From a virus, in the IMG/VR virus record IMGVR_UViG_3300048611_000080, positions 1-59,030 of that record: a stretch of 59,030 bases of DNA; one strand, 5' to 3'. Shown in pieces: positions 8,717-51,400 of this stretch (its first letter is position 1; every line of letters begins with the position of its first letter). A program made the translations under genes and the position numbers. The notes under the pieces were generated by a model. That model was not told where the DNA came from. It saw nothing but the letters and a program-made list of their open reading frames with translations, and did no database searches.

Positions 8717-10333
8717 TCAGTTCTTTCGGCCTACGACCTTGGCGTATTGCGCCTTGATGATGGGCAGCGAGTGCGCGTCCGGGCGACGGCGCTGTGACGA
8801 TGTTCGTGCCGACTTGCGCTGCGTGTTCGGCTCGGCCCATGCGAAGATGATCGACCAGGCGATGTCAGGCGACCGGCCGATCCGCTTCGATATCTCTTCG
8901 TTGTCCTCGATCTGGATGACCTTGCGCATATCCTCGTGCTTCTTCTCGCGGAATGCGGTCAGCTCCATGAGGATTTCCCGGCCCGGCGGGAGCGCGATAT
9001 TGTCGCCCTGGTCCGGATCCAGCCCTTCGCGCAGTCTCCAGACCCATTCGGCGCGCTTGTTGGCGAAACCACGAGCCCTTGACCGGTCCATTGCGGTCGA
9101 CGCCATCGCGCCCTTGCAGCGGACCACGTTGAATCCGTTGGTCTCCAGCGTATCGGAGAGACCGCCGCCATATCCGCCGCCGCAGTCGATGTTCATCTGC
9201 GGGTCGTCCTTGGCGGTGTTCACCACCATGGCGACCTTCGCTTCGGTCGCCTTCACATCGGCGCCGGCCTTGATCTTCGGCTCACCGAACACGACGCCGT
9301 GAAGCGGCGTACATACCATGCGGTCGGCGCCGCCGTCGGCGACGTCTATGCCCAGCGAGGTCATCGGCTTGGTCTTCAGTTCCCCCTTGCGGAGCATCCA
9401 TCTTTGCTGGGCCTTGAGAATCCACTCCGCCGGAATGACCTGGCGCTCGGAATCCTCCAGCGTGGTCAAGAACTTTCCCTGCAGGAGGGCGGATTGCAGA
9501 TGCATCGGCAGAGCCGCAAGCTGTGAGGCATAGCCGGTGTCGAGCAGGTCCGGGTTATCGCTCAGGCTCGCCGGGATGAAGGTCCGTGACTTGGGCCTGA
9601 CCTCCATCTCATTGCCGTTGGCGTCGACAACCAGGCCGACATAGTCGCGTTCGACCTCGATCTCATGCCCATTGACGTGGGCGAAGTATCTCAACTCCCC
9701 CGGCTTGGCCGGATTACGGTGTTCAGGATCAAGCCACGGCGCGAACCATTCGAAGATCCACAGCCCCTCAGGCGTCAGAGGCGGATTGGACGCTAGCACC
9801 ACCCTGCATCGCTGATCTGCGATCGCCGTCCGATTCCAGCCGATGATGAAGCGGACAATCGGCTCCTGGAACTGCACCGCCTCATCGAATCCGATGAAGT
9901 CGGCCGCGCGGCCCATATAGGCCTCAGCCTCCTTGTGAGACTCGAAGGCGCCGAACTCTACCGCCCGCCTGATCTTGCCCGGTATCGCCCAGACGTGCTT
10001 CTGCGAGTTGTAGCCGGTCGAGCTTCCGAGAATGCTCGCCAGGCCCGGAACAAGCCCGCCTTCGCCCTCCACATCCTTGAAGTGACGGCGGAACAGGCGG
10101 CTGACACGATGCTCGTTGATCGCCAGCCCCATGAGGAGCTGGGATTTGCCGCCGCCGGCGGCGCCGCCGTAATACAGCAGATCGGCCGGGCTGAAATACG
10201 CCTGCGTCTGAGGCCCAGGATTGGGAACCCAGCGCATTCCCGCCGTCGCCTTGTTGGCGAGGCTCATGACCTCCTTGCGTTCGCTATACGGCAGCGCTTC
10301 GAGGCGCCGGACGATGTCGTCCAGGAGGTTCAT
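8717..10333 (-). CDS. terL: Terminase large subunit
   Basis: 538 aa. Walker A motif YYGGAAGGGKSQL near the N-terminus. Follows a terS-like gene. Confidence 0.85.
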   Translation of the reverse strand: MNLLDDIVRRLEALPYSERKEVMSLANKATAGMRWVPNPGPQTQAYFSPADLLYYGGAAGGGKSQLLMGLAINEHRVSRLFRRHFKDVEGEGGLVPGLASILGSSTGYNSQKHVWAIPGKIRRAVEFGAFESHKEAEAYMGRAADFIGFDEAVQFQEPIVRFIIGWNRTAIADQRCRVVLASNPPLTPEGLWIFEWFAPWLDPEHRNPAKPGELRYFAHVNGHEIEVERDYVGLVVDANGNEMEVRPKSRTFIPASLSDNPDLLDTGYASQLAALPMHLQSALLQGKFLTTLEDSERQVIPAEWILKAQQRWMLRKGELKTKPMTSLGIDVADGGADRMVCTPLHGVVFGEPKIKAGADVKATEAKVAMVVNTAKDDPQMNIDCGGGYGGGLSDTLETNGFNVVRCKGAMASTAMDRSRARGFANKRAEWVWRLREGLDPDQGDNIALPPGREILMELTAFREKKHEDMRKVIQIEDNEEISKRIGRSPDIAWSIIFAWAEPNTQRKSARTSSQRRRPDAHSLPIIKAQYAKVVGRKN

Positions 10334-10402: not shown

Positions 10403-10852
10403 CTATTCTACCGACTGAACGCCCTTTGACAGAAGAAACGCAGCGCGCCTAGCAGCCGATCTGGCGTCCGGCGTCTCCGGATCCTCGGCTGGATCGGTCT
10501 CGCGCGTGTCGACGTGAGCCTTCTCGCTCCAGCCTTTGAACCGCTGCGCCATGTATTTGAGGTTTGCCGGCCCTTGGAACTCGCTGGGCGGTTTTTTCAG
10601 TCCAGACCGCACAGATTTGGCCCAATAGCTCTCGGCCGCTTCCTGCGCGCGCGAAAAGGCTTCCAAAAACTCTTGAAATTCATCGGCCCAGTTGTAAAGC
10701 GTCGCAATCCGCACATCGAGTTCATCGGCCATTTCCGCGACGCACATTCCCTCTTTGCCGCAGGCGACGATCTTCTCGCAGAATTCCTTGCGATACTTCG
10801 ACGGCCTTCCGCCTGGATGCTTTGGCTTAGGGAGGGTTTCAGTGTCAGGCAT
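10403..10852 (-). CDS. terS: Terminase small subunit
   Basis: 149 aa. N-terminal GGRPSKYRKEFCEKIVACGKEGMCVAEMADELDVRIATLYNWADEFQEF is the HTH signature common in small terminases. Confidence 0.7.
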   Translation of the reverse strand: MPDTETLPKPKHPGGRPSKYRKEFCEKIVACGKEGMCVAEMADELDVRIATLYNWADEFQEFLEAFSRAQEAAESYWAKSVRSGLKKPPSEFQGPANLKYMAQRFKGWSEKAHVDTRETDPAEDPETPDARSAARRAAFLLSKGVQSVE

Positions 10853-11572: not shown

Positions 11573-12094
11573 ATGAAACGTACCACCCAAGAGCGTCCGT
11601 TTGAACAGCAGGCCTGCCTTGCCTTCGTCGGACTCTCGGTTGTCACCGCCACCCTGGGCTTCTGGGCCAAGGGCTGGCTGCCTGGTGTGCTCCTGACCAT
11701 CGCCATGTGCGTGGTCGTCTTTCTCCTGTCCCGCGCTGTGGAGCGGGTGCAGGAGGCCTGGAGCACCAGGAACTGGTTTACCGCCTGGGTCGCGGGCCTA
11801 CTCGCCCTCGGCTTCGGGGTAATCGAGGCGAACCTGAACCACATCGGGCTCGATCACCTCAATACCGCCTATGCATTGGCGCCGGCCGCCTATATCTGGC
11901 CCGCCTGTTTCTTCATCTCCGGCGTGAATGTCTTTGCCAGCTTCGGTTTCGCCCGTGTGCTGGAAGACAAGTCGGAGACCAAGGCCAAGCCCCGCGAAAA
12001 GTCCGCGGATGTCCTGGTCTTCGGGCCGAACCTTCAGGAGCGCCAAACGCTTCGGGAGATCGGCGAAAAACTCCGCGCTTCCGGCGCGATGTAG
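11573..12094 (+). CDS. Multi-pass membrane protein, independently oriented accessory gene (moron)
   Basis: 173 aa with about 4-5 hydrophobic segments. Opposite strand to both flanking operons. Followed by an intrinsic terminator. Confidence 0.65.
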   Translation: MKRTTQERPFEQQACLAFVGLSVVTATLGFWAKGWLPGVLLTIAMCVVVFLLSRAVERVQEAWSTRNWFTAWVAGLLALGFGVIEANLNHIGLDHLNTAYALAPAAYIWPACFFISGVNVFASFGFARVLEDKSETKAKPREKSADVLVFGPNLQERQTLREIGEKLRASGAM

Positions 12095-12841: not shown

Positions 12842-12939
12842 GCGCCGGCAACGATAAGAAGCAGGGAGACGATACCGTAGCCGGCGGCGAGAACCAGGAC
12901 GGCCGCAGCCATCAGCCCGAGACGGTAGCGGATCGTCAT
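12838..12939 (-). CDS. 33-aa single-TM peptide (candidate)
   Basis: Manual translation: MTIRYRLGLMAAAVLVLAAGYGIVSLLLIVAGA. ATGA and GTGA coupling on both sides. Below the ORF-track length cutoff. Confidence 0.35.
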   Translation of the reverse strand: MTIRYRLGLMAAAVLVLAAGYGIVSLLLIVAGA

Positions 12940-13052
12940 TTGCGTTTCCGCCTCCCCAGCCTATTCGGGTCCATCATCGCTACGGAAATCACCAGAACAG
13001 CTAGGGAGAATAGGGCTGAGAGGCCGGTCAGGGCCATGAAGGTGGTGTACAT
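12936..13052 (-). CDS. 38-aa single-TM peptide (candidate)
   Basis: MYTTFMALTGLSALFSLAVLVISVAMMDPNRLGRRKRK, the only protein-like part of ORF 12936-13382. Weak SD. Confidence 0.38.
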   Translation of the reverse strand: MYTTFMALTGLSALFSLAVLVISVAMMDPNRLGRRKRK

Positions 13053-13065
13053 GGGGGCTCTGAAT

Positions 13066-13095
13066 GGAAAAGGGCGGCCCGTGAGAGCCGCCCCC
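13066..13095 (-). terminator. Intrinsic terminator-like hairpin at the end of the structured leader
   Basis: Minus strand reads GGGGGCGGC-UCUCACGG-GCCGCCC-UUUUCC. Stem is 13072-13078 / 13087-13093. The U-tract is short (4 U). Confidence 0.5.
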
Positions 13096-13393
13096 TTGAT
13101 CTGGCCTCTACCGTGAGAGTTCCTCCCCACCTGCCGATGAGGCGCACGGATTGCTGCTTCTACCAGACGCGGCCTACTCGCTAGCCCGCCCATGCCTGGG
13201 TAGGGCGAAGGTTTTAGCTCGCACCCTTTCGGGTCTTCTCTCGCCCCTAGGGGCTGTAGGTATCGCGGACCGGGCTTGATACCGGCTGCATCCTGAAGGG
13301 CTGAACCCGCCCCTTCTGCCTCGTCAAACGAGCTGGTCCATCCCAGCCGCCGCGATCTTGTGGCGCCCGTCTCTGGGCGCAATTCTCGAACTT
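13066..13393 (-). ncRNA. Structured non-coding leader or ncRNA of about 330 nt (class not recognised)
   Basis: About 370 bp with no credible coding frame. Nested helices on the minus strand are listed in the findings. A promoter-like element lies upstream and a GC hairpin plus U-tract lies at the 3' end. Confidence 0.4.
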
Positions 13394-13399
13394 GACGTT

Positions 13400-13428
13400 T
13401 TTATGCCCTTATTCGTGACTCGGTTCAA
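13400..13428 (-). promoter_or_regulatory. Sigma70-like promoter candidate reading into the structured leader
   Basis: Minus strand TTGAAC (13423-13428), 17 nt spacer, CATAAA (13400-13405). It overlaps the stop codon of the 208-aa gene. Confidence 0.35.
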
Positions 13429-14051
13429 GCGGCTTCTTCGAGCCTTTCGCCATACTCGTTGTGAATGGCGTCCAACGCGACCGCTAGGGCTTGTACAACC
13501 CGCCCCTGGAGCTTCCCGTTCTTGTAGCCATAGGCCTTGATCATATAGGCGGCCAACGAGAGGTTACGCTTGTGCGGATCGGACGGGTGGATGACGAGGG
13601 CATAAAGGACACGCAAGGACTCGCTGGGGACATTTTTCAGACAAGTCCGCAGGCGGTGCATCTTCTTGAGGGCTTTGCTCCGGCGCGAACTCCAGCCGTC
13701 GAAGCTGGTCTTGACCCTGATCACGTTCCGCGGCCTCTGTGTGGGCATGTAGACGCGCCTGGCCTTAGCGTAGAGGCGAATAGGGTCCGTGTCGCTCCCG
13801 GTGTTGGGCGCCTCCTCGGAGAGCTTGGAAAGGCCGGAGGCAGCAGCGTAGTAGTCGTTCACGATCCGAAGCATGTCGACCGCCGCGCCGGCCTGAGCGC
13901 CGGTAATCTCCCCTGCGTTGAGCAGCCGATCGATGGCGTCGATCTTCTTGATGACACCGCGGCCGGAATTGCCGGTGATGACGATCTCATCCGGCCCCTG
14001 CGGTTTCGGCGTCTGGTAGATTTCGTGCTTTGCCCCGTCCGCCCCTGCCAT
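13425..14051 (-). CDS. Hypothetical protein (208 aa), last large gene of the early-left operon; positional candidate for a late regulator
   Basis: Long ORF with protein-like composition. Any function is inferred from position only. Confidence 0.62.
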   Translation of the reverse strand: MAGADGAKHEIYQTPKPQGPDEIVITGNSGRGVIKKIDAIDRLLNAGEITGAQAGAAVDMLRIVNDYYAAASGLSKLSEEAPNTGSDTDPIRLYAKARRVYMPTQRPRNVIRVKTSFDGWSSRRSKALKKMHRLRTCLKNVPSESLRVLYALVIHPSDPHKRNLSLAAYMIKAYGYKNGKLQGRVVQALAVALDAIHNEYGERLEEAA

Positions 14052-16600: not shown

Positions 16601-17029
16601 CTATGCGGCTTGTTGGGTGTGTGTCTCTTCGGTCTCACGGAAATCTTCGAGGGCGTCTTCGAGACCGAAAGGCGCGTTGCGCTCCAGCCAATGGCAAAGC
16701 GCGGACTTGCAGACACCCATTCCCTTCGCGGTCTTGGTCAAGCTCCATCCGGCCGACCGACAAAGCGCAACCAACTCAAGCCGCGCGGCTGGATCGAATC
16801 CTTTGGACCTTCCGAGTATGCCGTTTTCAGCCAGGGCGGCGTGGTCGCTGGGGTCCACGTATTTTTGACAGAACAGCGTCACGCCGGCGCGTGTGAGGTT
16901 CCACCTGTCCGCAAGCCAGCTCAGGCTTTGGCCTTCGACCAAAGCTGTCCGAATATCCGCCATGCGCCGGCGAAGCCGCGTTTCCGGAAGTCCGTCCCGC
17001 CCGCCCTTGTGGGGTCCGCAATCGTTCAT
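16601..17029 (-). CDS. DNA-binding protein with two HTH-like segments
   Basis: 142 aa. Segments ...GQSLSWLADRWNLTRAGVTLFCQKY... and ...AGWSLTKTAKGMGVCKSALCHWLERN... resemble IS/terminase-type HTHs. Confidence 0.55.
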   Translation of the reverse strand: MNDCGPHKGGRDGLPETRLRRRMADIRTALVEGQSLSWLADRWNLTRAGVTLFCQKYVDPSDHAALAENGILGRSKGFDPAARLELVALCRSAGWSLTKTAKGMGVCKSALCHWLERNAPFGLEDALEDFRETEETHTQQAA

Positions 17030-17448
17030 GCCGCCCTCCTCACGACCACGACGACGCGCTCGGCAGGGATGGTGTCATCCCATCCGGCGCTCACCCGCTC
17101 GCAAAGGGCGTCGTCGTCGGTTACTGTTCCGGACAGAAGATCGAGCAGCGGCTTGATCCGGTTGTCGACATCGGCCCTGCGCTTGATGCGGCCGGCGTTG
17201 ATGACCGCCGCGAACCTGCCGGGAATGTGGCCGGGCTTCTGAAGCGTCAGTTCGTCGAACGCCTGCTTGTGCCAGCGACGGTATTCGGCGCTCCGCACCC
17301 TGCCCTTGCCGGGTATGTTGGACCAGGCCGAGTTGACGGACGGAGGCAGCGGCAGGCTCAACGTCACGCAGTCGGCCTGCATGACACGCGCGGTATCGAG
17401 AACCCGCAGGCCCTTGCCTTCGATGTCCTTGAGGGTCCAGGCGGTCAT
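17026..17448 (-). CDS. rusA: RusA-family Holliday junction resolvase
   Basis: 140 aa. Contains LPPSVNSAW ... EYRRW ... RRADVDNRIKPLLDLL ... DDD, the RusA signature. Confidence 0.75.
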   Translation of the reverse strand: MTAWTLKDIEGKGLRVLDTARVMQADCVTLSLPLPPSVNSAWSNIPGKGRVRSAEYRRWHKQAFDELTLQKPGHIPGRFAAVINAGRIKRRADVDNRIKPLLDLLSGTVTDDDALCERVSAGWDDTIPAERVVVVVRRAA

Positions 17449-17882
17449 GCCGCGATCTCCACGATGCGGGTTTCAAACGGCGGGCGGATTTTCCGCGCCG
17501 GCCTGTCGCCATGGGCCTGCTTCATGTGCTCGGCACAGTAGGGCTTGCCTTCCGCCGTCGTATGGCCGCAGAATTTGTGCGGGCGGGTCTCCGAGGTCGG
17601 CCAGCGGCACATGCCGTCCTTGAGATCCATGACGCCGACATTGAGCGGGACCAGCGCCGTGAAACTCACGGACCTGAGATGGAAGTTTCTCTCTCGCTTG
17701 AACTTCGGCGGTATAAGCTGCCTGGCGGGCCTTCCGCCTCCCCGCTTGAGGCCAAGGCGATCAAGCTTGCCAGTGACCGCGCCCCGGCTGACGCCCTTGA
17801 GAGCCCGCGCGATCTGGCCGGCGCTGTGCCCGCTCGTCCACATCGACTTCAGCAACTCTACGCGGTCGGGGGTCCAGGTCAT
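17445..17882 (-). CDS. gcrA: GcrA-like cell-cycle regulator homologue
   Basis: N-terminus MTWTPDRVELLKSMWTSGHSAGQIARALKGVSRGAVTGKLDRLGL and C-terminus CRWP...FCGH...GKPYCAEH match the GcrA family of Alphaproteobacteria. Confidence 0.8.
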   Translation of the reverse strand: MTWTPDRVELLKSMWTSGHSAGQIARALKGVSRGAVTGKLDRLGLKRGGGRPARQLIPPKFKRERNFHLRSVSFTALVPLNVGVMDLKDGMCRWPTSETRPHKFCGHTTAEGKPYCAEHMKQAHGDRPARKIRPPFETRIVEIAA

Positions 17883-18202
17883 GCTGCTAACCTCAGTTCA
17901 TCGCGGCCGGGTTTGAGCTGGAGCCGGTACTCGTTGAGAAGCCCAGCCAGGCGCGGGTTGCGCCTTTCGAGCCGCGTGATCTTCTTGCGCGCGAGATAGA
18001 CAGTCGCCATGCACCGACCGCCGAATGCCTTGCCGATGGTCGCGTAGCTGTGGCCTGATAGCTCCCACGCCAGCGCCATAGCCACCTGACGCGGCCATGC
18101 GATGTGGCGCTCACGCCGCGCGCTTCGGATTTCCGAAAGGTCCAGGCCTTCGCGTTCGCAAACGGCGCGCTGGATATCCTGAATTGTCGGCCGCCCTTCC
18201 AT
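17879..18202 (-). CDS. DnaA domain IV-like DNA-binding protein
   Basis: RERHIAWPRQVAMALAWELSGHSYATIGKAFGGRCMATVYLARKKI resembles the DnaA C-terminal HTH domain. Confidence 0.68.
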   Translation of the reverse strand: MEGRPTIQDIQRAVCEREGLDLSEIRSARRERHIAWPRQVAMALAWELSGHSYATIGKAFGGRCMATVYLARKKITRLERRNPRLAGLLNEYRLQLKPGRDELRLAA

Positions 18203-22135: not shown

Positions 22136-22324
22136 CCCGCCCCCCGAAGAGGACCGGCGCGAGTCATCGAACTGATGAGAACCTTTGGCGTACATTGAAA
22201 ATGCAACTGCCCGGTCGCATCTATCCTGTGAGCATTTACATGCTGCATGCATGTTTTGCGGGTCTGCCCTATGGGCAGGCACGTTGCTTCTGTGACAGAC
22301 TCACGGAAGTTGGTCGGCGCCGGG

Positions 22325-22354
22325 GCTTGACCTAAGAACGTATTAGGAACATTA
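22325..22354 (+). promoter_or_regulatory. Sigma70-like promoter candidate for the 77-aa plus-strand gene
   Basis: TTGACC (22326-22331), 17 nt spacer, CATTAT (22349-22354). The -35 reads CTTGAC from 22325. Confidence 0.42.
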
Positions 22355-22377
22355 TCCCGTTCTCGGATAGTTTTCCC

Positions 22378-22611
22378 ATGGCCCTTGGGGGGCGCCCGAT
22401 GCTCGGAAAAATGCTTATGGATGGGCCTTCCGCCTTGGAAGTGACCGAGGAATACGTCACCGCCACCGGCACTTCCGGGGGCCATGAGGTCTGCCAGGTC
22501 TGGCAGCGGGCGCACGCCGACATGATGGCGGCCGAGTACTTTGACCGGCTTATGAAGGGAAAGGGGCCGCCTGCCCTGCTCGCCTGCTTCGTCAATGGCG
22601 GGGTGAAGTAG
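22378..22611 (+). CDS. Hypothetical 77-aa protein, independently transcribed
   Basis: High third-position GC in this frame by manual codon reading. The competing minus-strand ORFs look like GC-rich shadow ORFs. Confidence 0.5.
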   Translation: MALGGRPMLGKMLMDGPSALEVTEEYVTATGTSGGHEVCQVWQRAHADMMAAEYFDRLMKGKGPPALLACFVNGGVK

Positions 22612-22613
22612 GC

Positions 22614-22820
22614 TCATGAGACGGACTCAAGCTCGTCTTCGAGCTTCGCCAGCCGCATTTCAGCGGCCTCAAGCGTTTCCGGGAACATTCGCGACTTGGA
22701 GGTCTTGAGGTCCTTCAGGCGTCCGCCGTCGAGCAAAATCTTTCGCGAGACTGTGCTAAGCTTAAGCCCCGCCTTCTTGGCGTAGCGCTCGGCCCGGGTA
22801 ACAAGGTCGCGTGTGGTCAT
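22614..22820 (-). CDS. Small switch-region regulator candidate (68 aa), probably translated from a leaderless mRNA
   Basis: MTTRDLVTRAERYAKKAGLKLSTVSRKILLDGGRLKDL... The ATG lies 7 nt downstream of the -10 element of the leftward promoter. Confidence 0.55.
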   Translation of the reverse strand: MTTRDLVTRAERYAKKAGLKLSTVSRKILLDGGRLKDLKTSKSRMFPETLEAAEMRLAKLEDELESVS

Positions 22821-22826
22821 GCGGCC

Positions 22827-22855
22827 ATAAAATGGGATGCTTCCCATTCTGTCAA
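22827..22855 (-). promoter_or_regulatory. Leftward switch promoter
   Basis: Minus strand TTGACA (22850-22855), 17 nt spacer, TTTTAT (22827-22832). Operator O1 fills the spacer. Confidence 0.5.
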
Positions 22856-22903
22856 GGGATACTTCCCATTTTGTTGCGTTCGGGGGGCGTGGGATGCGTA
22901 CCA
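22833..22903. promoter_or_regulatory. Operators O1-O3 (14-bp palindrome family TGGGAT-N2-ATCCCA)
   Basis: TGGGATGCTTCCCA at 22833-22846, AGGGATACTTCCCA at 22855-22868, TGGGATGCGTACCA at 22890-22903. Confidence 0.65.
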
Positions 22904-27072: not shown

Positions 27073-27819
27073 ATGTCAGCACTAGCTAAGCATGAACCTG
27101 GGCAGGTAGCGCCCGCACAAACACCGCCTGACCCGTTCATGGCGATGATTCAGCAGGCATCGGACAAGCCTGAACTTATACCGCAAATCCGCGAGCTTGT
27201 CGCTATCCGCAACGAGGAAATCGCACGGCTGGCGCGGGTCGCTTATGCAGCCGCTCTGGCGGAGATGCAGCCTGAGCTTCCGGCTGCAGCACATCGTGGG
27301 CTCAACACCAACACCAACAAGAGCTATGCGAAATGGGAGGACATCCACGTCCTCATCTCTCCAGTCTTGGCGCGGTTCGGGTTCTCTCTGTCATTCAAGA
27401 CGGAGGTCACCGGCGACAAGGTCGTGGTGACCGCGATCTTGAGCCACCGCGAGGGACACAACGACCAGACATCCCTGCCGCTTCCTATCGACGCCGGCGC
27501 CGGCCGCAATGCGGTTCAGGCCGTGGGCTCAACGGTAAGCTACGGCAAACGCTACACCGCCTGCGCGCTTCTGAACATCAGAACCAGCGAAGATGACGAC
27601 GGGCACGGGGCTGGCGGCGTCATCAACGAGAGCCAGGCGAAGGTCTTCACGGACCTTGTCGAGACGCACAAGGCCAACCTCACAAAGCTGCTGAAGTACG
27701 TGAAGGCCGAAAGCGTCGAGACGATGACGCAGGCGCAACTCGACACCGCAACCGAGGCGCTGAATCGCTGGATCGACGGCGAGAAGACCAAAGCCGAGAA
27801 GAAGGCTGCCGCGAAATGA
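27073..27819 (+). CDS. erf: ERF-family single-strand annealing protein
   Basis: 248 aa. ...YAKWEDIHVLISPVLARFGFSLSF... and ...AVGSTVSYGKRYTACALLNIRTSEDDDG... match the Erf signature. Strong SD (gaaggag). Confidence 0.75.
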   Translation: MSALAKHEPGQVAPAQTPPDPFMAMIQQASDKPELIPQIRELVAIRNEEIARLARVAYAAALAEMQPELPAAAHRGLNTNTNKSYAKWEDIHVLISPVLARFGFSLSFKTEVTGDKVVVTAILSHREGHNDQTSLPLPIDAGAGRNAVQAVGSTVSYGKRYTACALLNIRTSEDDDGHGAGGVINESQAKVFTDLVETHKANLTKLLKYVKAESVETMTQAQLDTATEALNRWIDGEKTKAEKKAAAK

Positions 27820-28433
27820 TCCTGCAGGGCTCACCTGAGTGGCATCAGGCCAGACTCGGCAAGGCGACCGCCTCGCGGATTGCCGACGTGATCGCGCGCA
27901 CGAAGTCTGGCTACTCGACCTCGCGCGCCAATTACGAGGCCGAGCTTATCGTCGAACGCTTGACGGGCATGGAAATCCCGAAGTTCACCAGCGCGGCCAT
28001 GCAACACGGCATCGACACGGAACCGCAGGCGAAGGATGCCTACGCCTTCATGCGTGACTGCGATGTGGAGATTGCCGGGTTCGTCGAGCATCCGAGCATT
28101 GAGATGGCTGGCGCCAGCCCTGACGGGTTCGTGGGCGAGCATGGGCTTGTTGAGGCGAAGTGCCCCATCACGGCAACCCATATCGCAACCCTTCTAACCG
28201 GCGCGATCCCGGGCGAATACCTCACGCAGATGCAATGGCAGATGGTCTGCACCGGCAGGAAGTGGGTCGACTACATCAGCTTCGATCCAAGGCTCCCGGC
28301 CCGGATGCAATTGTTCATCAAGCGTGTGGATCGCGACAACGCGAAGATCGCCGAACTGGAGAAGGAGGTCCGCGCCTTTCTCGATGGCGTCACCGCCAAG
28401 ATTGCCGAGCTGGAGAAGGTCGCCGCAGCATGA
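27816..28433 (+). CDS. YqaJ-type (lambda Exo-like, PD-(D/E)XK) recombination exonuclease
   Basis: MILQGSPEWHQARLGKATASRI... and ...GASPDGFVGEHGLVEAKCP... are YqaJ family motifs. Confidence 0.78.
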   Translation: MILQGSPEWHQARLGKATASRIADVIARTKSGYSTSRANYEAELIVERLTGMEIPKFTSAAMQHGIDTEPQAKDAYAFMRDCDVEIAGFVEHPSIEMAGASPDGFVGEHGLVEAKCPITATHIATLLTGAIPGEYLTQMQWQMVCTGRKWVDYISFDPRLPARMQLFIKRVDRDNAKIAELEKEVRAFLDGVTAKIAELEKVAAA

Positions 28434-30679: not shown

Positions 30680-30927
30680 CGGGGAGCCGTGAAAAGCCTG
30701 CGGTTCGTCCTTGGCCCCGCTGGATGCGGGCTGAGACGGCCGCGGCCTATTGCGATGAGGTGTCAACTGAGGCTTTCCTGCGCGCCGTGGGGCTGGGGCT
30801 CTATCCCAAAGCCCATGACGTACCGGGGAAGGGCAATCGATGGCTGCCGGAAGAGCTGGACCAGGCGATACAAAAGAACGTCTCAGAGAGAGACGAGCGG
30901 GACGTAAATCTCGTAGACCTCGTATGA
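30676..30927 (+). CDS. xis: Excisionase / AlpA-type HTH protein
   Basis: 83 aa. RWMRAETAAAYCDEVSTEAFLRAV...GNRWLPEELDQAI. ATGA-coupled to the integrase gene. Confidence 0.62.
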   Translation: MTGSREKPAVRPWPRWMRAETAAAYCDEVSTEAFLRAVGLGLYPKAHDVPGKGNRWLPEELDQAIQKNVSERDERDVNLVDLV

Positions 30928-32165
30928 TCGCGATCAATGATCTCCCGCGCTACATGCTTCCGAAGGCGCTCGCTGGCGGCGAGATCGCCTACTATTGGTC
31001 GCCCACCGACAAAGCGTTGGCGGATTCGGGAATGGAGCGTCAGCGCCTCGGAAGAGACTACGCCAAGGCGCGCGAGGCTGCCAGTGCTCTTAACGACCGC
31101 CTCGACTTCTGGAAGATCCACAAGCGGTTTCCAGATGATGCGGCGAATGACGCTCCCCTGCCCGGCACAATCGATGCGGTCTTTGTGCGATACCAGGAGC
31201 TGAACCCATCGAAGCCCGGCGCGTTCAAGAAGCTCAAGCCGAAGCAGCAGAAGGACTATCAGCGCCTGATGCGGCGCTTTGCCAACCACAAACTCAAGAC
31301 GGGCCGCAGGCTGGGCGACATGCCGGCGAACAGGCTGGACGCACGCACCGCCGATGCCGTCTATGAAAAGCTGCTCTACGATGAGGATGGATACGCCCGG
31401 CGCCGCGTGACCAATCACACAATAGCGATCTGCCGGAAAGCGTTCAACGTGGTGGCGCGGTCCAACCCGGAATGGATGCCGATCAAGAACCCGTTCGACG
31501 GGATGACGCTGGACACATCCTCAGCCGAGACGACGCCCGCGACCTATGCAGACCTCGTGGCCTTCGAGAAGAAAGCCGCCGAGATGGACCTGCCAGAGAT
31601 GGCCTTCGCCGCAAGGGCTGCATGGGAGCTGCTACAGCGCGTCGAGGAAATCTGCACGACGTTTGCGTGGACGCACTGGCGCCCGCTGGATAATCCCGAT
31701 GCGGTCTTTCTCGGCTTCGCAAAAAACAAGAATCCGGTGTGGAAACCTTTGGGCGAACGGGATGAAAAAGGGCGCTGGATAGCGTACTATCCCGAGCTTG
31801 AAGAACGCCTCGAAGCGGTGCCCAAGCGCGGGATGCTGGTCATGGTCCACAACGCGACGAAGGGCAGGAAGAAAGCCGATGGCTCGTCCGTCAAGGCCGT
31901 CTTCCGTCCGTACACAACCAGGTTCATGCAGAAGCGCGCCCGCCTGATCCGCGACGCCGCCGAGCTTCCGCCGCACGTCACCATGGAGACGTTCCGCCAT
32001 GGCGGGCTGACCGAGCTGGGCAGCGCCGGGCTTCCCGACACGCTGGCGCAGGCGCTCAGCCGCCACAAGCAGCGCGCCACGCTCGACCGCTACATCCACA
32101 CCGACGTTGACCAGATGAAGAAGGGCGCCCGGCTCAGGCTGGCGCACAGGAGAGGTGAGACGTGA
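30924..32165 (+). CDS. int: Tyrosine integrase
   Basis: 413 aa from MIAINDLPRY. The C-terminal catalytic region has ...ETFRHGGLTELGSAG... and ...LSRHKQRATLDRYIH (HxxR box and catalytic Tyr context). attP lies about 300 bp downstream. Confidence 0.8.
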   Translation: MIAINDLPRYMLPKALAGGEIAYYWSPTDKALADSGMERQRLGRDYAKAREAASALNDRLDFWKIHKRFPDDAANDAPLPGTIDAVFVRYQELNPSKPGAFKKLKPKQQKDYQRLMRRFANHKLKTGRRLGDMPANRLDARTADAVYEKLLYDEDGYARRRVTNHTIAICRKAFNVVARSNPEWMPIKNPFDGMTLDTSSAETTPATYADLVAFEKKAAEMDLPEMAFAARAAWELLQRVEEICTTFAWTHWRPLDNPDAVFLGFAKNKNPVWKPLGERDEKGRWIAYYPELEERLEAVPKRGMLVMVHNATKGRKKADGSSVKAVFRPYTTRFMQKRARLIRDAAELPPHVTMETFRHGGLTELGSAGLPDTLAQALSRHKQRATLDRYIHTDVDQMKKGARLRLAHRRGET

Positions 32166-45494: not shown

Positions 45495-48400
45495 TCAGTT
45501 CGCGGGCGGAGGCCCGAAGAAGATCGCGGCGGGATTGTCGGTCTCGCCGTTCCACAGGGCTTGGGCGCCAAGAACGGATGCCTGCACCTGTCCTGCGGGG
45601 TAGTGGAAGACCATGCCGGCCGCTCGGTTGGCCGGCTTCCAGAAGCTCTGATCGAAGTCGGCTTCAGCGACCGCCGAGCCCATCTGGTTCAACTCACTGA
45701 AGATCGCGAGGCCCGCCGGACCCTTGTAACCATAGCTGTCATCGCCGCGCGCCGAACCGGCGAACTGCGAGACGCCGACGAATGGACCAAAGAGGAACGC
45801 CACTTGCTCGCGCGCGTACCGCTCCGCCCACTCCTCAGGCTCGTCATCATCACCGATGCCGCGCGTGAGGAGGTCAAGGGTCATCTTGCCCGCAACGGGA
45901 ACCGCAGCGAGGATCATCAGGTCCAACGACAGCGCTGCGATCTGCCCAGCCGTTCGTGCATTCCTGACGCGCTGGACGCCGAGGTTATAGGTCGTGATCA
46001 TATAGCTCATGAAGTTGGTCAGGATGCGCAGAAGCGCCGCGTATTTGGTCCCGGCCCCCGATTGCATCGCCGCGAGCTGGTGAAGCTCCCCGCCGCCCTG
46101 TGCGTCCACCACCGCCTGATCCGCCATGGCGATGGCGTCGCCTTCCTCCGCTCCATAGTGCTGCGCTTTGAAATAAGCCCCGTACCAGGTCGGCATGTCG
46201 ACGCCGTAGAACTGAGTATTCGCCATCAGGGCGAAGCCGTTGCGCACCATCCAGCGGTGCGCCATGCGCAGGTGGCGGGGAATGAACGAAGGCGTCCACT
46301 TGTTCTTCACCGCATCTAGCAAAGACGCCATTTCCGGGCTCTGCGTCTGGCGCCGATGACGCATGAATTCCGAGCGTTCCATGATCCAATCGGCCGAGGA
46401 CTGAAGCGTTGCAGCATCCTTGCCCATGCGGGCGTAGCCCTTGGCGACCCATGGGCCGCCGACACGGACAACCGAGTTGGAAGCGCCGAGGACCTGCAAT
46501 GCCGCTGTCGATGCCTTCCACGCAAGGCCAACGACGGTGGCCCCATTCCTCAGATGAGCGAGAAGGCCGGAGGTTCCCTCCATCCCGAACTTGGCGGTCA
46601 CGAGCTGGCTGACGATGGTGTTGTAGATTTGCCGACCATGACGCCCGACAATCGCATCCTCGACCTCGCGTCGCTTAATGATCCTGCCGATGTCGAACAG
46701 GATTTCTTCGGTCGCGATCGAGCGGGCGACTTCGTCTAGGTGCTGAACGATGACATCCAGGGCGGAGAGACGAAGCGGCAGTGTGACTTTGCCCTTGACC
46801 CGCTCGCGCGTGTAGCCTTCACGTCTGCGCTGCCCGATATTGCCGGTCTGCGGCAGGGCGTCGGCCTCGATGGCCCGCTGGCCGGTTTTGGATGACAGCT
46901 TGGGATCGAACTTCAGAGGGTAATATCCGCCGGCATAGATGCCGAAGCGGGTCGCGATCTGAAGCGGCTGCTCTTTTGACATCGGCGCGCCATGGACGGA
47001 TTCATGCACGCGGTTTGCTTCCGGGAACCATGTGTCGAGGTAGTTCCATGTGCTCTGCACCCAGTCCCAATCGCGCTTGGAGAGCGTGTCGAGAACTTCC
47101 TGAACTTGCCCCTCGTTCCACCCATAGGCGTCCATGAGGCGCTTGCGGTTGACGGCATTGCCCCAGTTGAGGGCGATGGCGAGGCGGCCCTGTGTGGTCA
47201 GCGAGCGGCCGATTCCATTGAAGCGGCGGCGGTCACGATAGAAGCGTTCCTGCTCCGCCTGAGTGTAGGCGCCGAACAGCCCGATCACATCCTCGCCCAT
47301 CTGCTTGCGCAGGCTGGAGAGATGTGCAAATGCGGCGTTGAGCGGCTTCACGATGTAGCGCCAGAAGACCCCACCGTCCTTGCCGCCCGCGAACTGGTGC
47401 GCCAGGGAGTGCAGCGTCCGATGCATGGCGAAGTATTTCTGCACCGAGCCTTTGACGATCTCACCTGCCGTGTCCGTCTCGAGCGGTTCGGGCGGCTTCT
47501 GGTTCGGCTGATTGGTTTCGACCTCGGCGGCGATATCCTCCGCCGCCAGAGACAGCCGGCGGCGCTCGCCTTCCTTGATCAGCCGGTCCTTGAGCGTCGC
47601 CAGCCGCCAGATCATGTCGGCTTCCGCCCTGACGCTCTCCAGCTCTTCGACAGTGAGGCTCTTGTAGTTGCGGGCCTCTGCGCCTTCGGCCAGTGCGGCA
47701 AGCGCCTGTGAGCGTTCCAGCGCCTCTGCGGCGGCAACGCGCTGTTCCTCCGACGTCTTTGTCGGGTCCTGATAGGCGGCGAAAGGATCGATGCCGGCCA
47801 TCTGCGCCTGGATCCATTGGGCGCGGGACGCCCTGCGGCCTTCCTGCCGCTTGCTTTCCGGGCGGAGCATGTAGTCGTCGAGAAGCCCGTTCATCTGCGA
47901 GGCGTAATCTTCGCCTGCCGAGAATAGCCGCTGCTGCTTGGTCTTGGACCCGTAGGCGATCAGATGCTTGCGGGTCTTCTCAGCATCCTCCGCCATCTTC
48001 CGACCTTCGCGGAACATGTGAAGGTTGACGAGCTGATAGCGCTTGAACTGCGCCGCCTCGTCGAACTTGCCCTTTCCGGCAGCCTCCATCGCTTTCCTGC
48101 CCCAGCGCTGTTCGAGGATCAGCCACTGGTTGTAGTTCAGAACCTCACGCACCTGCTTGGTGCGGAGGTTTTCCTGCGCCTGCTGCTTGGCGAGATTGCC
48201 GGCGAATTGCTGGCCTGCCGCCTTGGCGAGAGCTTCGAGCTCGATCTCGAAATGCCGCTGCTGTACCTCGTTGCGGGCGAACTTCTCCGCTTCCTGCATG
48301 ATGGTCCCGTCCTTGAACGGGTCGCCGTGTCTGGCGATCATGCGCTGTTCGGTGAGCTGCTTGATGAGGGCGTTGCGGCGCGGACCCTCTCTCAGGCCCT

Positions 48401-51400
48401 GCAGGAGAGCGTTGCCGTCCGGCATGTCGAAGAACGGGGCCGCCTCATCGGGGCCGATGGCGTTTTCCGTCTGGCCCGTGAGTGCTGTCTCGATCTTGGC
48501 CCGCAGAACAGCGCCGTCTTTCTCGGCTATGTCGATGCCTTGACCGTCGAACCACTGTTCCCATGTCTCGGCGTCGCGGATTTTCTGGACCGTGTCGATG
48601 TCAGTCCGGCTATAGAGTGGCCCCTGCCCGCCGACGTCATTGCCAAGCGCGTCGAGAAAGTCGTTGTCGTCCGGCGGGCTTTCGCCGCTGAAATATCCTT
48701 CCTCCCAAGCCGCAACCGCTGCATCATGAATACTGTAGGAGCGAACGCGCTTGTTGTCTTTGGTCTCGTCGGCCAGCAAACCGGGGGCAGTCTTGCGCTC
48801 CCCGATCATCGACTTGATCTCGCCGCCCGGATCGCGGATGCCGCTATAGGCTATCTTGTCGTTGCCTGAGCCGATGTAGCGCCTGCGGGCGAGGAACTGC
48901 CAGAGCGAGCGAGGCTTCTTCTGGTTGAGCGTCCGGCGCACGTCTCGCGCGATCTCTAGGAACTGGTCCGCATCCGTCGCCGCCGCACTGTAGGCGCGGA
49001 CCTCGGGAGGAAGCTTGGCTAGCGCGTCCTCGCCATATTGCTCGCGGACGGCATTGAGGTCGAGGCGCATGGGCGGGAGGTTAGGGGGTGGCACGGTGCG
49101 GCCCGAACTGCCAGTCTGCGCCAGCATTTCCTCATCGTTCGTCCACGTGCTTCCGAGTTCCTGATCGGCTTCGGGCTGGCGAACCATGGCGCCTTCGACG
49201 AACACGTTGATGTGGCCTGACCACGGATCGCGGACACCGACATAGCCTTCGGCTTTCAGCCTCGCGAACAGCGCTTTGGCCTGCGGCGTGTCGTCCGGCT
49301 TCTCGTAGTTCTCAAGTCCTCGGGACGTTTCCTCATCCAGATCGAACAGCTTGCCGTTGATCCTCCAAGCATCGATCTTACCTGTCTGTCCGCCCCACTC
49401 GGCGCCGATCCACGGCTCCTCTGCGGAGTACAGACCGTTGCCGAGACGCCCCTTTTCCACCTCGCCAAGAACGTCTTCGCCGCTGCCGCGATAGACAAGC
49501 AGGCCGCTACTGACTTCGCCCGATGCTGGGGCCTTTATGTCGGCTTCCGTGCCTGATGTGGCATACCACGCATGGACCCCGGCCTTGTCCATGTCGGCCA
49601 GAGTCGGCCACTTCTTCGGGTTGTAGACGCCGTGCTCAAGCTTGATGTCGCCGAGAGCGAACACGACGCGCGCGAGGTCATGGTGGTAGCCATCGTTCCC
49701 GCCTGGAAAGGCGATGATCCGGCCAGCATCGGTCCTGAACAGCAGGATGATCGGGACGACATTGTCATCCATCATCCGCTGGCGCAGGGCTGCCAGACTC
49801 TCGTCCGTGGCGTTCGGCTCGAAATATTTGGTGTTGTCTAGGAAGCCGTCAGCCTGCAACAGAGCGGACACGGCTTCAGCTTCGATAGCTGCCGCGTCGA
49901 TGAAGTCGCCCTGCGTTGACCTCCAACCGCCGCCTGACAGCCACTGGTAGGCGCGCTGTTCCGGACGCTCGTCGACTTCGGATGTGACCTCGGCGCGGAC
50001 CTGACGTTCTTCCGATCGCCACCAGGCTTTCTGGTTACGCTCGTAATCCTCCATGAGCCGGGCCATGAGGTCGGCTTCGGCCCGCTCTCTGGCGGCTAGC
50101 AGACGCGCCTTGGTGCGCTCGAATGCCTTCTCGGTGATGACGCCTTTGTCCAGCAGCGCCTTCGCCATCTGCTCGCTGTCACGCGCTGAGGTCTGGGTCG
50201 CGGCCTTGATGGCTTCCTCGGTTGCAAGCATGCGGTCGAATACGGCGCGGATTTCGTCGTTGAGGCGGACGCGGCGCCCGATCTGGGTTATGCTCTTATA
50301 GATGCGGAGGAGCCATTGCTTCAGCGTGGCAAAGACCGAGCGGAGACTGGTCGATGGGGCCTTGCCTTCGCGAAGATAGGCCTCGAATGTCTCGGCGAAG
50401 GCTTCGTGGACGTCGCGTCCCTCTTCCGTGACCCGGCCCTGCGCATCGAACATCGCCGTCCAGTTTGGCGACTTGCCCTTCCATTCGAGGATGGCGGCTA
50501 GCTGTTCCTGCACGAACGGGTGAGGCGTCTCGGTTTGCGCCATCTTCCACAGCGTATCAAGATACCAGTGAGAGGCTTCGTGGACGAAGGTGGAGAGATT
50601 GGAGGATTCGAACAGGCGGATGACAGAGCGGTCGGCGCGGGGCGTGAATGAACCGCGCATGTCGCCTTGGGCGAACGCCATCTTCGAGCGCGCCGCCTCG
50701 ACCCGGTCGGCATACTTCGACCGCATCGCCCTGATCTGGTTCTTGGCCTTGGCCGGATCGCGATCCGGGAACATGACCTGCGCGATGTCGGCAACGTCGG
50801 CGCCGCGCGCCAGCATGCGGATCACGCCCTCAGTCTCAGGCGCTTGCGGTCTCCCGCCGACCAGCTTTTCGGATGGGAACCCCTTCTTCTCCGCCCGGCC
50901 AAGGTAGACCGACACAGCGGTCTCGGTGACCTTGCCCTCCTCTCCGCCCATGCGGACGGCAATCTCATCGTTTGTTAGACCTTCGCTGGCGGCCTTCCAC
51001 GCCTCAAATTCGTTTTCGCTCAAGACACTGGACGCACGTGTCAGGGTTTCGTCATCGATTGGTGCGGGCGTCCGTCTGGTTTGTTGCGGAAGAGCGTCGG
51101 CGTCTTCCTCGCCGGTCAGCGCCGCGACGACATCGAACCCCATCTCTTTCCACAACGCTTCCGGGTCCTGCCCCGTCCGCTCCGCCAGCGTCACCACCAT
51201 CTCGCCTGCAATGGCTGCCTGCGTGTTGGCGGTCTCGGTGTTGAACAGCTTGGTGTTGGCTACCTGCTCGCGTATGGTTTCGCGAACGCGATCAGCGGAG
51301 TCGGCGAAGGTCTGTTCGGTCGTGGCCGAGGTTTCCCGCGCCTTCTGCTCCTCCTCGAACACGGCTTTCATGGCCTCGTGTTCCTTGGCCGTGAAGTCGT

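Follow-up and report, generated by a model that had tools for sequence, protein, structure and literature searches.

IMG/VR virus record IMGVR_UViG_3300048611_000080 is a phage-like contig of 59 kb with 61% guanine plus cytosine (GC), and its positions 1 to 59,030 form the window analyzed here. A non-coding gap of 372 bases (13053-13424) lies between a leftward gene for a protein of 208 amino acids (aa) and the first late open reading frame (ORF). We found in this gap a promoter, an early-transcribed motif, and an intrinsic terminator, and the same elements follow the homologous gene in all 15 closely related loci. The explanation that fits best, and that we favor with moderate confidence, is that the interval is a phage late-operon control cassette for which the 208-aa protein serves as a promoter-loaded antiterminator. 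Read-through of the terminator would then probably be helped by this protein. A sequence-only reading of the same DNA had described the interval as a highly structured non-coding leader of about 330 nucleotides (nt) and had likened it to the lambda Q/PR'/6S/tR' region. The layout on which that likeness rested recurs in 15/15 close loci; the mechanism it implies is taken up below as a proposal. All functions suggested here for the cassette are deduced from sequence and synteny.

The promoter TTGAAC-17-CATAAA was present at 13428-13400, and the TGA stop of the 208-aa gene (13427-13425) falls within its -35 hexamer, both as the sequence-only reading had described (Table 1). The early-transcribed motif TTCGAGAATTGCGC has a single exact site in the 59-kb window. 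It contains the hexamer GAGAAT, which resembles a -10 element and would lie at about +7 to +12 from the predicted start. The GC-rich terminator hairpin with a U-tract was likewise found where it had been claimed (13097-13068, -22.7 kcal/mol); its core consists of nine GC-rich pairs, and it ends in UUUU and then CC. Only 14 nt separate the terminator from the first late ORF.

Table 1. Features of the gap between the 208-aa gene and the late operon, with the adjoining genes, the distance to the terminator in the window and related loci (L numbers), and the cassette pattern
Feature	Position or loci	Strand	Remarks
208-aa gene, last of the early-left operon	13425..14051	-	codon-position GC 0.60/0.44/0.79; candidate antiterminator
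-35 element TTGAAC	13423..13428	-	read from sequence; contains TGA stop (13425-13427) of the 208-aa gene
Promoter spacer, 17 nt, CGAGTCACGAATAAGGG	13406..13422	-	conserved GTC..(G/A)AA core; candidate regulator-binding element (binding predicted)
-10 element CATAAA	13400..13405	-	read from sequence
Predicted transcription start (A)	13392..13393	-	placed by spacing alone, 7-8 nt past the -10; GCCA/GTCA context
Early-transcribed motif TTCGAGAATTGCGC	13377..13390	-	candidate sigma-dependent pause/loading element; includes -10-like hexamer GAGAAT (13382-13387)
First hairpin GCGCCC-AGAGAC-GGGCGC	13363..13380	-	no U-tract; -12.7 kcal/mol, z -2.86
Variable leader interior, ~265 nt	13098..13362	-	non-coding; no detectable function
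Intrinsic terminator	13066..13097	-	13-pair hairpin + UUUUCC; -22.7 kcal/mol, z -4.65
First late ORF, 38-aa single-pass membrane protein	12936..13052	-	starts 14 nt past the terminator
Second small membrane-protein ORF, 33 aa	12838..12939	-	overlaps the preceding stop (ATGA); codon-position GC 0.71/0.47/0.76
Terminator ~40 nt past predicted start	L002, L010, L016, L018, L024		hairpin after the motif is the terminator
Terminator ~90 nt past predicted start	L014, L021		
Terminator ~165 nt past predicted start	L001, L004, L005, L020		
Terminator ~300-325 nt past predicted start	L006, L008, window		
Cassette pattern			TTGAC-N17-CAnnWW-N14-TTCNAGAATTG

To place these elements among relatives, homologues of the 208-aa protein were collected from a large protein collection, which gave 14 at 45-84% identity, and a few more were reached through an alignment query. 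The search for related loci with the single protein returned nothing, and the alignment query reached the relatives. The family is small, with 20 clusters among 1.84 billion representative proteins, and the phage database gave no match to either the DNA or the 208-aa protein. The sole match in genome contigs, 29 residues at E 3e-4 in a Methanosarcinales metagenome-assembled genome (L022), was discarded as spurious. In every locus, the homologue is the last gene of a replication or early module (DnaA_C, GcrA, primase-helicase, etc.), and a non-coding gap of 93-460 nt separates it from the small ORFs and terminase that come next. The promoter, the early-transcribed motif, and the terminator stand after the homologous gene in 15/15 close loci, and parts of the cassette also follow four distant homologues.

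An alignment of 14 loci, anchored downstream of the stop codon, defined the conserved positions. The -35 consensus is TTGAC, in which TTGA is invariant, and it contains the TGA stop of the gene in 12 of the 14. The spacer measures 17-18 nt with a core of GTC..(G/A)AA, and the AA at alignment columns 22-23 is nearly invariant. The -10 consensus is CAnnWW, with an invariant A at its second base and a nearly invariant C at its first. A GCCA/GTCA context at the expected start position is common to the aligned loci. The transcribed motif has the consensus (A)AGTTC(C/G)AGAATTGCGC and leads directly into a GC-rich hairpin of varying sequence. Mean column identity reached 62% over 68 nt of the cassette, while the proteins diverge to 42-50% identity. 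A -10-like hexamer in the early transcript (A2, T6, at least 4 of 6 matches) was found in 7/11 lineages, compared with 10% of background windows; since these lineages are related, the figure measures conservation rather than independent events. A scan with the promoter-plus-motif pattern returned nothing. The spacer was also inspected by eye as a GANTC/GcrA site or a palindromic operator, and both were rejected as inconsistent across loci.

Three natural variants bear on what is being conserved. In L020 and L021, the gene ends in TAA, and the promoter, TTGACG-17-CAGATA, is displaced 16 nt downstream. The TTGACG kept at this new position indicates that the -35 element is retained independently of the coding sequence. 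In L015 (700-1400), an ORF of ~193 aa resembling an HNH endonuclease is inserted exactly between the regulator stop and the cassette; directly past the stop of this ORF come a motif and a terminator that are almost the same as in L002. Distant homologues with 24-27% identity (L024, L026, L027, and L028) have a promoter directly after the gene; L028 retains the motif as TCCCAAAATTCGCC, and L024 has an immediate terminator. Together, these variants show that selection acts on the DNA elements themselves. As separate observations on these loci, the HNH-like ORF of L015 has its own TGA stop within TTTGAGAC, and the spacing from -35 to -10 looks disturbed there. The regulator homologue of L014 (146-745) has an in-frame TAG (..AGLD*LRIVE..) and is otherwise intact, which may point to a pseudogene, to recoding, or to an error in sequencing.

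An intrinsic terminator with the tail TTTT(G/C)CATT is present in each of the 15 close loci, at distances from the predicted start that fall into four groups (Table 1). These distances were checked by eye; an automated finder mis-called weak hairpins in the window (+61) and L006 (+65) and missed the terminator of L016. Where the window has its first hairpin, relatives also have a GC hairpin, but its sequence differs. L001, the closest relative (84% protein identity), shows ~96% identity with the window in the first 83 nt and again at the terminator tail, and its interior between these ends is unrelated and shorter. Altogether, the interior was absent or unrelated in 13/14 other loci, and in five it was reduced to nothing. 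Searches with the leader by nhmmer and blastn found only its first 85 nt elsewhere. Only L008 shares short interior blocks with the window (CAAGATCGCGG, CCGCGATACC, and TAGCGAG..AGGCC); a global alignment scored 60.5, where shuffles scored 29.6 +/- 6.9. The two interiors have a common closing helix, ATCGCGG/CCGCGAT. We considered a structured RNA common to both and rejected it: the block similarity is real, but the inner helices differ and there is no third homologue. The 265-nt interior is best seen as unconstrained filler, by analogy with the variable PR'-tR' region of lambdoid phages.

Real genes in this region have codon-position GC of about 0.60/0.45/0.78, and the leader part of a 148-aa ORF gave 0.69/0.64/0.62. 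By tblastn, none of the ORFs that follow the homologous gene in the relatives matched the leader interior, and no ORF of more than 14 codons starts with ATG in the transcribed direction within the gap. Coding readings of the gap were therefore rejected, with codon-position GC unlike that of genes and no homology. Within the leader, the long ORF at 12936-13382 is a non-coding shadow, in agreement with the sequence-only reading, and the conserved protein-coding signal that would have contradicted that reading was looked for by codon-position GC and tblastn and not found. Folding energies were compared with those of dinucleotide shuffles. The whole 381 nt folded at -153 kcal/mol against -147.7 +/- 6.4 for shuffles (z -0.83), and 19/100 shuffles folded as well. 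The interior (13100-13362, 263 nt) gave z +0.24, and three leader sub-regions gave z -1.35, -0.96, and +0.08. Only the first hairpin and the terminator beat the shuffles (Table 1), and for the terminator 0/200 shuffles were as stable.

The helices listed in the sequence-only reading are complementary where it placed them, except that 13201-13208/13241-13249 pairs with a one-base bulge. Because the leader folds no better than shuffles, these nested helices are at chance level for a 61% GC sequence, and the description of the leader as highly structured fails on the figures for the whole leader and the interior. Rfam (15) gave no match at gathering score in the window or 13 related loci. At a relaxed threshold (E up to 10, region), only matches with E 1.6 and E 6.1 appeared, the latter being a Caulobacter small RNA model that covered the terminator hairpin only. 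The suggestion of a stand-alone non-coding RNA or riboswitch-like element thus found no backing in Rfam, folding, or conservation of the interior. The proposed likeness to the HK022 put RNAs also fell away: one simple hairpin is positionally conserved here, and the interior is unconserved and of ordinary stability.

We propose the following course of events for the cassette. Without a factor, polymerase would make a dead-end RNA of ~328 nt (13393 to ~13066), which would correspond to lambda 6S RNA. As the last product of the early-left operon, the 208-aa protein would engage polymerase at this sigma-70-type promoter. Contact would probably be made through the conserved element in the spacer that separates -35 from -10, with polymerase pausing at the -10-like sequence of the early transcript. 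The modified, terminator-resistant polymerase would then read through the terminator and through hairpins at 12137-12113 and 12089-12073 into the late genes. With the promoter before the terminator and only 14 nt from there to the first late ORF, regulated read-through would be the only productive use of this arrangement. If the terminator did no more than end the early operon, it should precede the late promoter rather than follow it. The further hairpins in the late path fit a processive modification of polymerase.

The 208-aa protein is the simplest candidate for the regulator because it is strictly linked to the cassette, is made last, and is accompanied by a conserved spacer element that is not transcribed. 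The spacer element counts because it is located exactly where the binding elements of lambda Q, AlpA, and GafZ lie at their promoters (PMC11150451). The early -10-like hexamer would fit a sigma-dependent promoter-proximal pause as the loading point; because this hexamer is missing in L020/L021, the pause is something we infer.

Q-type antitermination is textbook biology, and the few unrelated protein families known to carry it out come almost entirely from enterobacterial phages. Lambda Q resembles the window in that the regulator is the last early gene with the late promoter directly after it, a -10-like element occurs in the early transcript, the late operon opens with small membrane-protein genes (in lambda, holin S), and a single long late operon needs processive read-through. 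The -35 element of lambda lies ~44 nt past the Q stop, whereas here it overlaps the stop of the regulator. The candidate pause element is less uniform here, and the terminated leader is 194 nt in lambda and ~328 nt here. The 208-aa protein has no sequence similarity to Q, and the host in this case is probably alphaproteobacterial.

A further counterpart is GafZ of Caulobacter crescentus, a DUF6456 protein whose role as an antiterminator has experimental support. Its binding element lies between -35 and -10 of PgtaT, and a 229-nt untranslated leader and the terminator terGTA follow downstream (PMC11150451). DUF6456 is a domain of the gene-transfer-agent regulators GafA (Rhodobacter) and GafZ (PMC9638019, PMC11150451). 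Like these systems, the window has a candidate element between -35 and -10, a long untranslated leader, a downstream terminator, a regulator with a sigma-like helical C-terminal part, and an alphaproteobacterial context. The published GafZ element, GCGCCCG-CTGGCGC, is a GC palindrome (PMC11150451), whereas the conserved core here is GTC..AAA. In addition, terGTA consists of three 150-bp repeats after the first gene, whereas a simple hairpin before the first gene is found here, and GafZ regulates a gene transfer agent rather than an autonomous temperate phage.

Other systems share single traits. AlpA of Pseudomonas aeruginosa is loaded at a promoter through its element (ABE), between or near the core elements, and reads through intrinsic terminators (PMC11150451); it has no sequence or significant fold similarity to the 208-aa protein (7xyb_G, E 7.8). 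The put elements of HK022 also lie directly past a promoter and ahead of terminators. They are conserved RNAs of two stem-loops that work without a phage protein, whereas one simple, positionally conserved hairpin is present here. In the lambda N/nut system, too, a hairpin comes after a linear motif early in the transcript, and N, like the 208-aa protein, has a basic, probably disordered, highly conserved segment. Unlike nut, the element here has no boxA consensus and lies within ~35 nt of the start of a dedicated promoter, and the untranscribed spacer is also conserved.

Pfam, PHROGs, and NCBIfam gave no match to the 208-aa protein, and its structure was modeled with AlphaFold (AF2) from 29 sequences at a predicted local distance difference test score of 77.7. 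The model has a small N-terminal beta hairpin, two helices, a low-confidence basic segment, and a confident four-helix C-terminal part. The most conserved segment of the protein, DPIRLYAKARRVY.PTQRPRNV..FDGW, is basic and of low model confidence. One family member gave weak matches to Sigma70_r4_2 and extracytoplasmic function (ECF) sigma factors. Foldseek against BFVD returned nine uncharacterised phage proteins with probability of at least 0.96 (up to 1.0), and one BFVD match was annotated DUF6456 (E 1.9e-4, TM 0.40). The GafZ and GafA sequences used for comparison were machine-read from supplement text; the real GafZ cluster (P0043) is 97% identical to the GafZ text. The two texts match DUF6456 (PF20057) at 1e-44 and 8e-57, respectively, and the 208-aa family has no Pfam DUF6456 match. 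A single-sequence comparison with GafZ gave E ~0.1 with colinear aligned segments. We treat the DUF6456 resemblance, which comes from the structural model, as a lead only. GafY matches Pfam Bac_DnaA_C, as does a 107-aa protein of the window, and BLASTP between the two was not significant. The presence of this Bac_DnaA_C protein in the same operon as the 208-aa gene suggests a GafY/GafZ-like pair.

Several results weigh against a promoter-loaded antiterminator. Searches of Pfam, including Q-lambda (PF03589), Q82 (PF06530), Q21, and AlpA, gave no match to the protein and 29 family members at E up to 10, and hhalign against lambda Q gave E 0.83, which is no sequence relationship. Profile-profile comparison of the family with the real GafZ cluster by hhalign gave E 0.093 at a probability of 0.6%. 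Fold matches in the PDB were insignificant (E above 0.6), mostly to sigma-factor chains, and a sequence search there gave nothing significant either. On the DNA side, the U-tract of the terminator has only four U, and the -10 element CATAAA lacks the usual final T. For this latter reason, a generic promoter scan did not list the promoter, which is supported by its conservation in relatives and not by its match to consensus; for the same reason, it may need activation rather than be constitutive. The -10-like element of the early transcript is absent in L020/L021 and scores only 3/6 in four other loci, and no terminator is evident in the distant loci L026 and L027.

Part of this evidence would suit a conventional activator or sigma-like factor, with the terminator as a partly leaky attenuator or insulator and no resistant polymerase involved. 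We regard this as unlikely. The imperfect -10 and its absence from the generic scan, the weak sigma-like fold matches together with the weak sigma region 4 match of one member, and the promoters of L026 and L027 without an evident terminator all agree with it, and GafA was itself first read as an activator or alternative sigma factor (PMC9638019). However, a terminator ~40-325 nt past the promoter (-22.7 kcal/mol in the window), kept in 15/15 close loci, is hard to explain unless it is overcome, and further hairpins stand within the late operon. Recognition through RNA is another improbable account, to which we give about the same small weight: the 208-aa protein would bind the nascent motif and hairpin and then either ride polymerase, as in lambda N/nut, or block the terminator hairpin, as BglG does at the ribonucleic antiterminator (RAT). 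A linear conserved motif followed by a hairpin of variable sequence fits the boxA/boxB architecture, and in five loci this hairpin is the terminator itself. In L014 and L021, and in part also in L020, L006, and L008, a string like AAGTTCCAGA occurs again immediately 5' of the terminator; the most conserved segment of the protein, being basic and of low confidence, is like an arginine-rich RNA-binding peptide. The conserved promoter spacer, however, is not transcribed, the helical bundle of the C-terminal half with its weak resemblance to sigma region 4 is more typical of DNA binding, and Pfam detected no RNA-binding domain.

That the ~330-nt RNA is functional itself, as a structured non-coding RNA, a riboswitch-like sensor, or a protein-free cis-acting RNA of the put type, appears very improbable. 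The leader does form a discrete unit from promoter to terminator, and the window and L008 share partial block similarity, the closing helix, and differing hairpins at matching places. Against this stand the lack of excess folding and of any Rfam match, an interior that even the closest relative does not share, and searches that reach only the first 85 nt; a pattern scan of viral contigs gave only a chance match (L030) inside a terminase-like coding region. Hardly more credible is the account in which the hairpin is the plain terminator of the early-left operon and the promoter-like sequence a by-product of the C-terminal codons (Ala-Ala-stop). GCnGCTTGA does encode the conserved AA-stop, and the terminator does come after the last early gene, but the conserved stretch extends ~55 nt beyond the stop and takes in spacer, -10, and transcribed motif. 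Moreover, the promoter is kept at a new position beside a TAA stop in L020/L021 and in the distant L024 and L026, and the 14 nt from terminator to ORF leave no room for another late promoter.

Returning to the 208-aa protein as a promoter-loaded antiterminator, a wider proposal is plausible, and we advance it tentatively, short of preferring it: the 208-aa family may be new processive antiterminators of this kind in alphaproteobacterial temperate phages, structurally related to GafZ/DUF6456, with the Bac_DnaA_C protein as the GafY counterpart. If so, these phages would be free-living counterparts of the regulator used by gene transfer agents, and phage late control may be linked to gene transfer agent regulation. 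The target would also be unusually compact, with a -35 element that holds the stop of the regulator and, in some loci, a terminator ~40 nt past the start. GafZ is a recent addition to the antiterminators. Natural variation of the target (leaders of 40-325 nt, a displaced promoter, and an HNH insertion at the junction) makes for a compact and directly testable system for how a sigma-like protein could make polymerase terminator-resistant in alphaproteobacteria. For annotation, the gap should be labeled as a late promoter and terminator and not as a new non-coding RNA.

The wider gene order agrees with an early-left operon before the gap and a late operon after it, as the sequence-only reading had it from the sequence. 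By codon-position GC, one leftward gene set runs from ~21.8 kb to 13425 and a second, long one from 13052 to 52; this second set goes on in the same direction at 58958-37207, and a rightward arm spans 22.4-36.5 kb. Gene orientation gives a single late operon of ~35 kb, with terminases at 10403-10852 (small) and 8717-10333 (large). The orientation of the gene sets, the content of the early arm, and the positions of the terminases make the 208-aa gene (13425-14051) the last early-left gene and everything to its left the late operon. At 16601-18202 (minus strand), the leftward early arm encodes the 107-aa Bac_DnaA_C helix-turn-helix protein (17879-18202), a GcrA-like protein, RusA, and an HTH_23 protein, and relatives carry the same early set. 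The likely host is an alphaproteobacterium; GcrA-like proteins occur in the phage as well as in its relatives. The rightward arm encodes ERF and YqaJ recombinases together with a protein that weakly matches the integrase family (27073-28433 and 30840-32165, plus strand), which is consistent with a temperate phage. A scan for transfer RNA and transfer-messenger RNA found none.

At the start of the late operon, the 38-aa ORF is conserved with a 39-aa ORF of L001 (tblastn, 56% identity), and in most loci the terminator is likewise followed first by tiny membrane-protein ORFs. Farther along, a gene for a 173-aa membrane protein with a weak DUF2243 match (11573-12094, plus strand) lies antisense within the late operon and is flanked by GC hairpins. 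These hairpins (12137-12113 and 12089-12073, with U5 after the second) lie around this gene in the path of late transcription. The gene looks like a moron with its own terminators that late transcription must cross.

Relatives contain further elements within or downstream of the cassette. A second conserved non-coding block, ..CACTAGC..GAGCCGTCAGC..GACGGGCGGGCTCAC..CACTAT.., lies between the terminator and the first small ORF in L014, L020, L021, L024, L008, L006, and L028 but not in the window; on a rough alignment, RNAalifold yielded no clear consensus for it. A palindrome, GTTTCACGTGAAAC, sometimes with GAGTTAACGTTC nearby, occurs in L001 (~2090-2150), L005, L009, and L014 and may be an operator; even when up to 2 mismatches were allowed, the window gave no match to it. 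L009 (146-298 of the downstream extract) and L028 (784-972) encode a small conserved helix-turn-helix ORF of 51-62 aa (..RTVSDIVNGRTYA..). It lies in the leader region, between the promoter and the small membrane-protein gene, and has no counterpart in the leader of the window.

Elsewhere in the window, the structural region contains a single ORF of 2596 aa with gene-like codon bias (45495-53285, minus strand). The early control region (22300-22880) contains a good plus-strand promoter, TTGACC-17-CATTAT (~22327-22355). Inverted motifs, AAATGGGATGCTTCCCATT / GGGATACTTCCCATTTT, are repeated at ~22825-22870, where they overlap a minus-strand TTGACA; these repeats are probably repressor operators.

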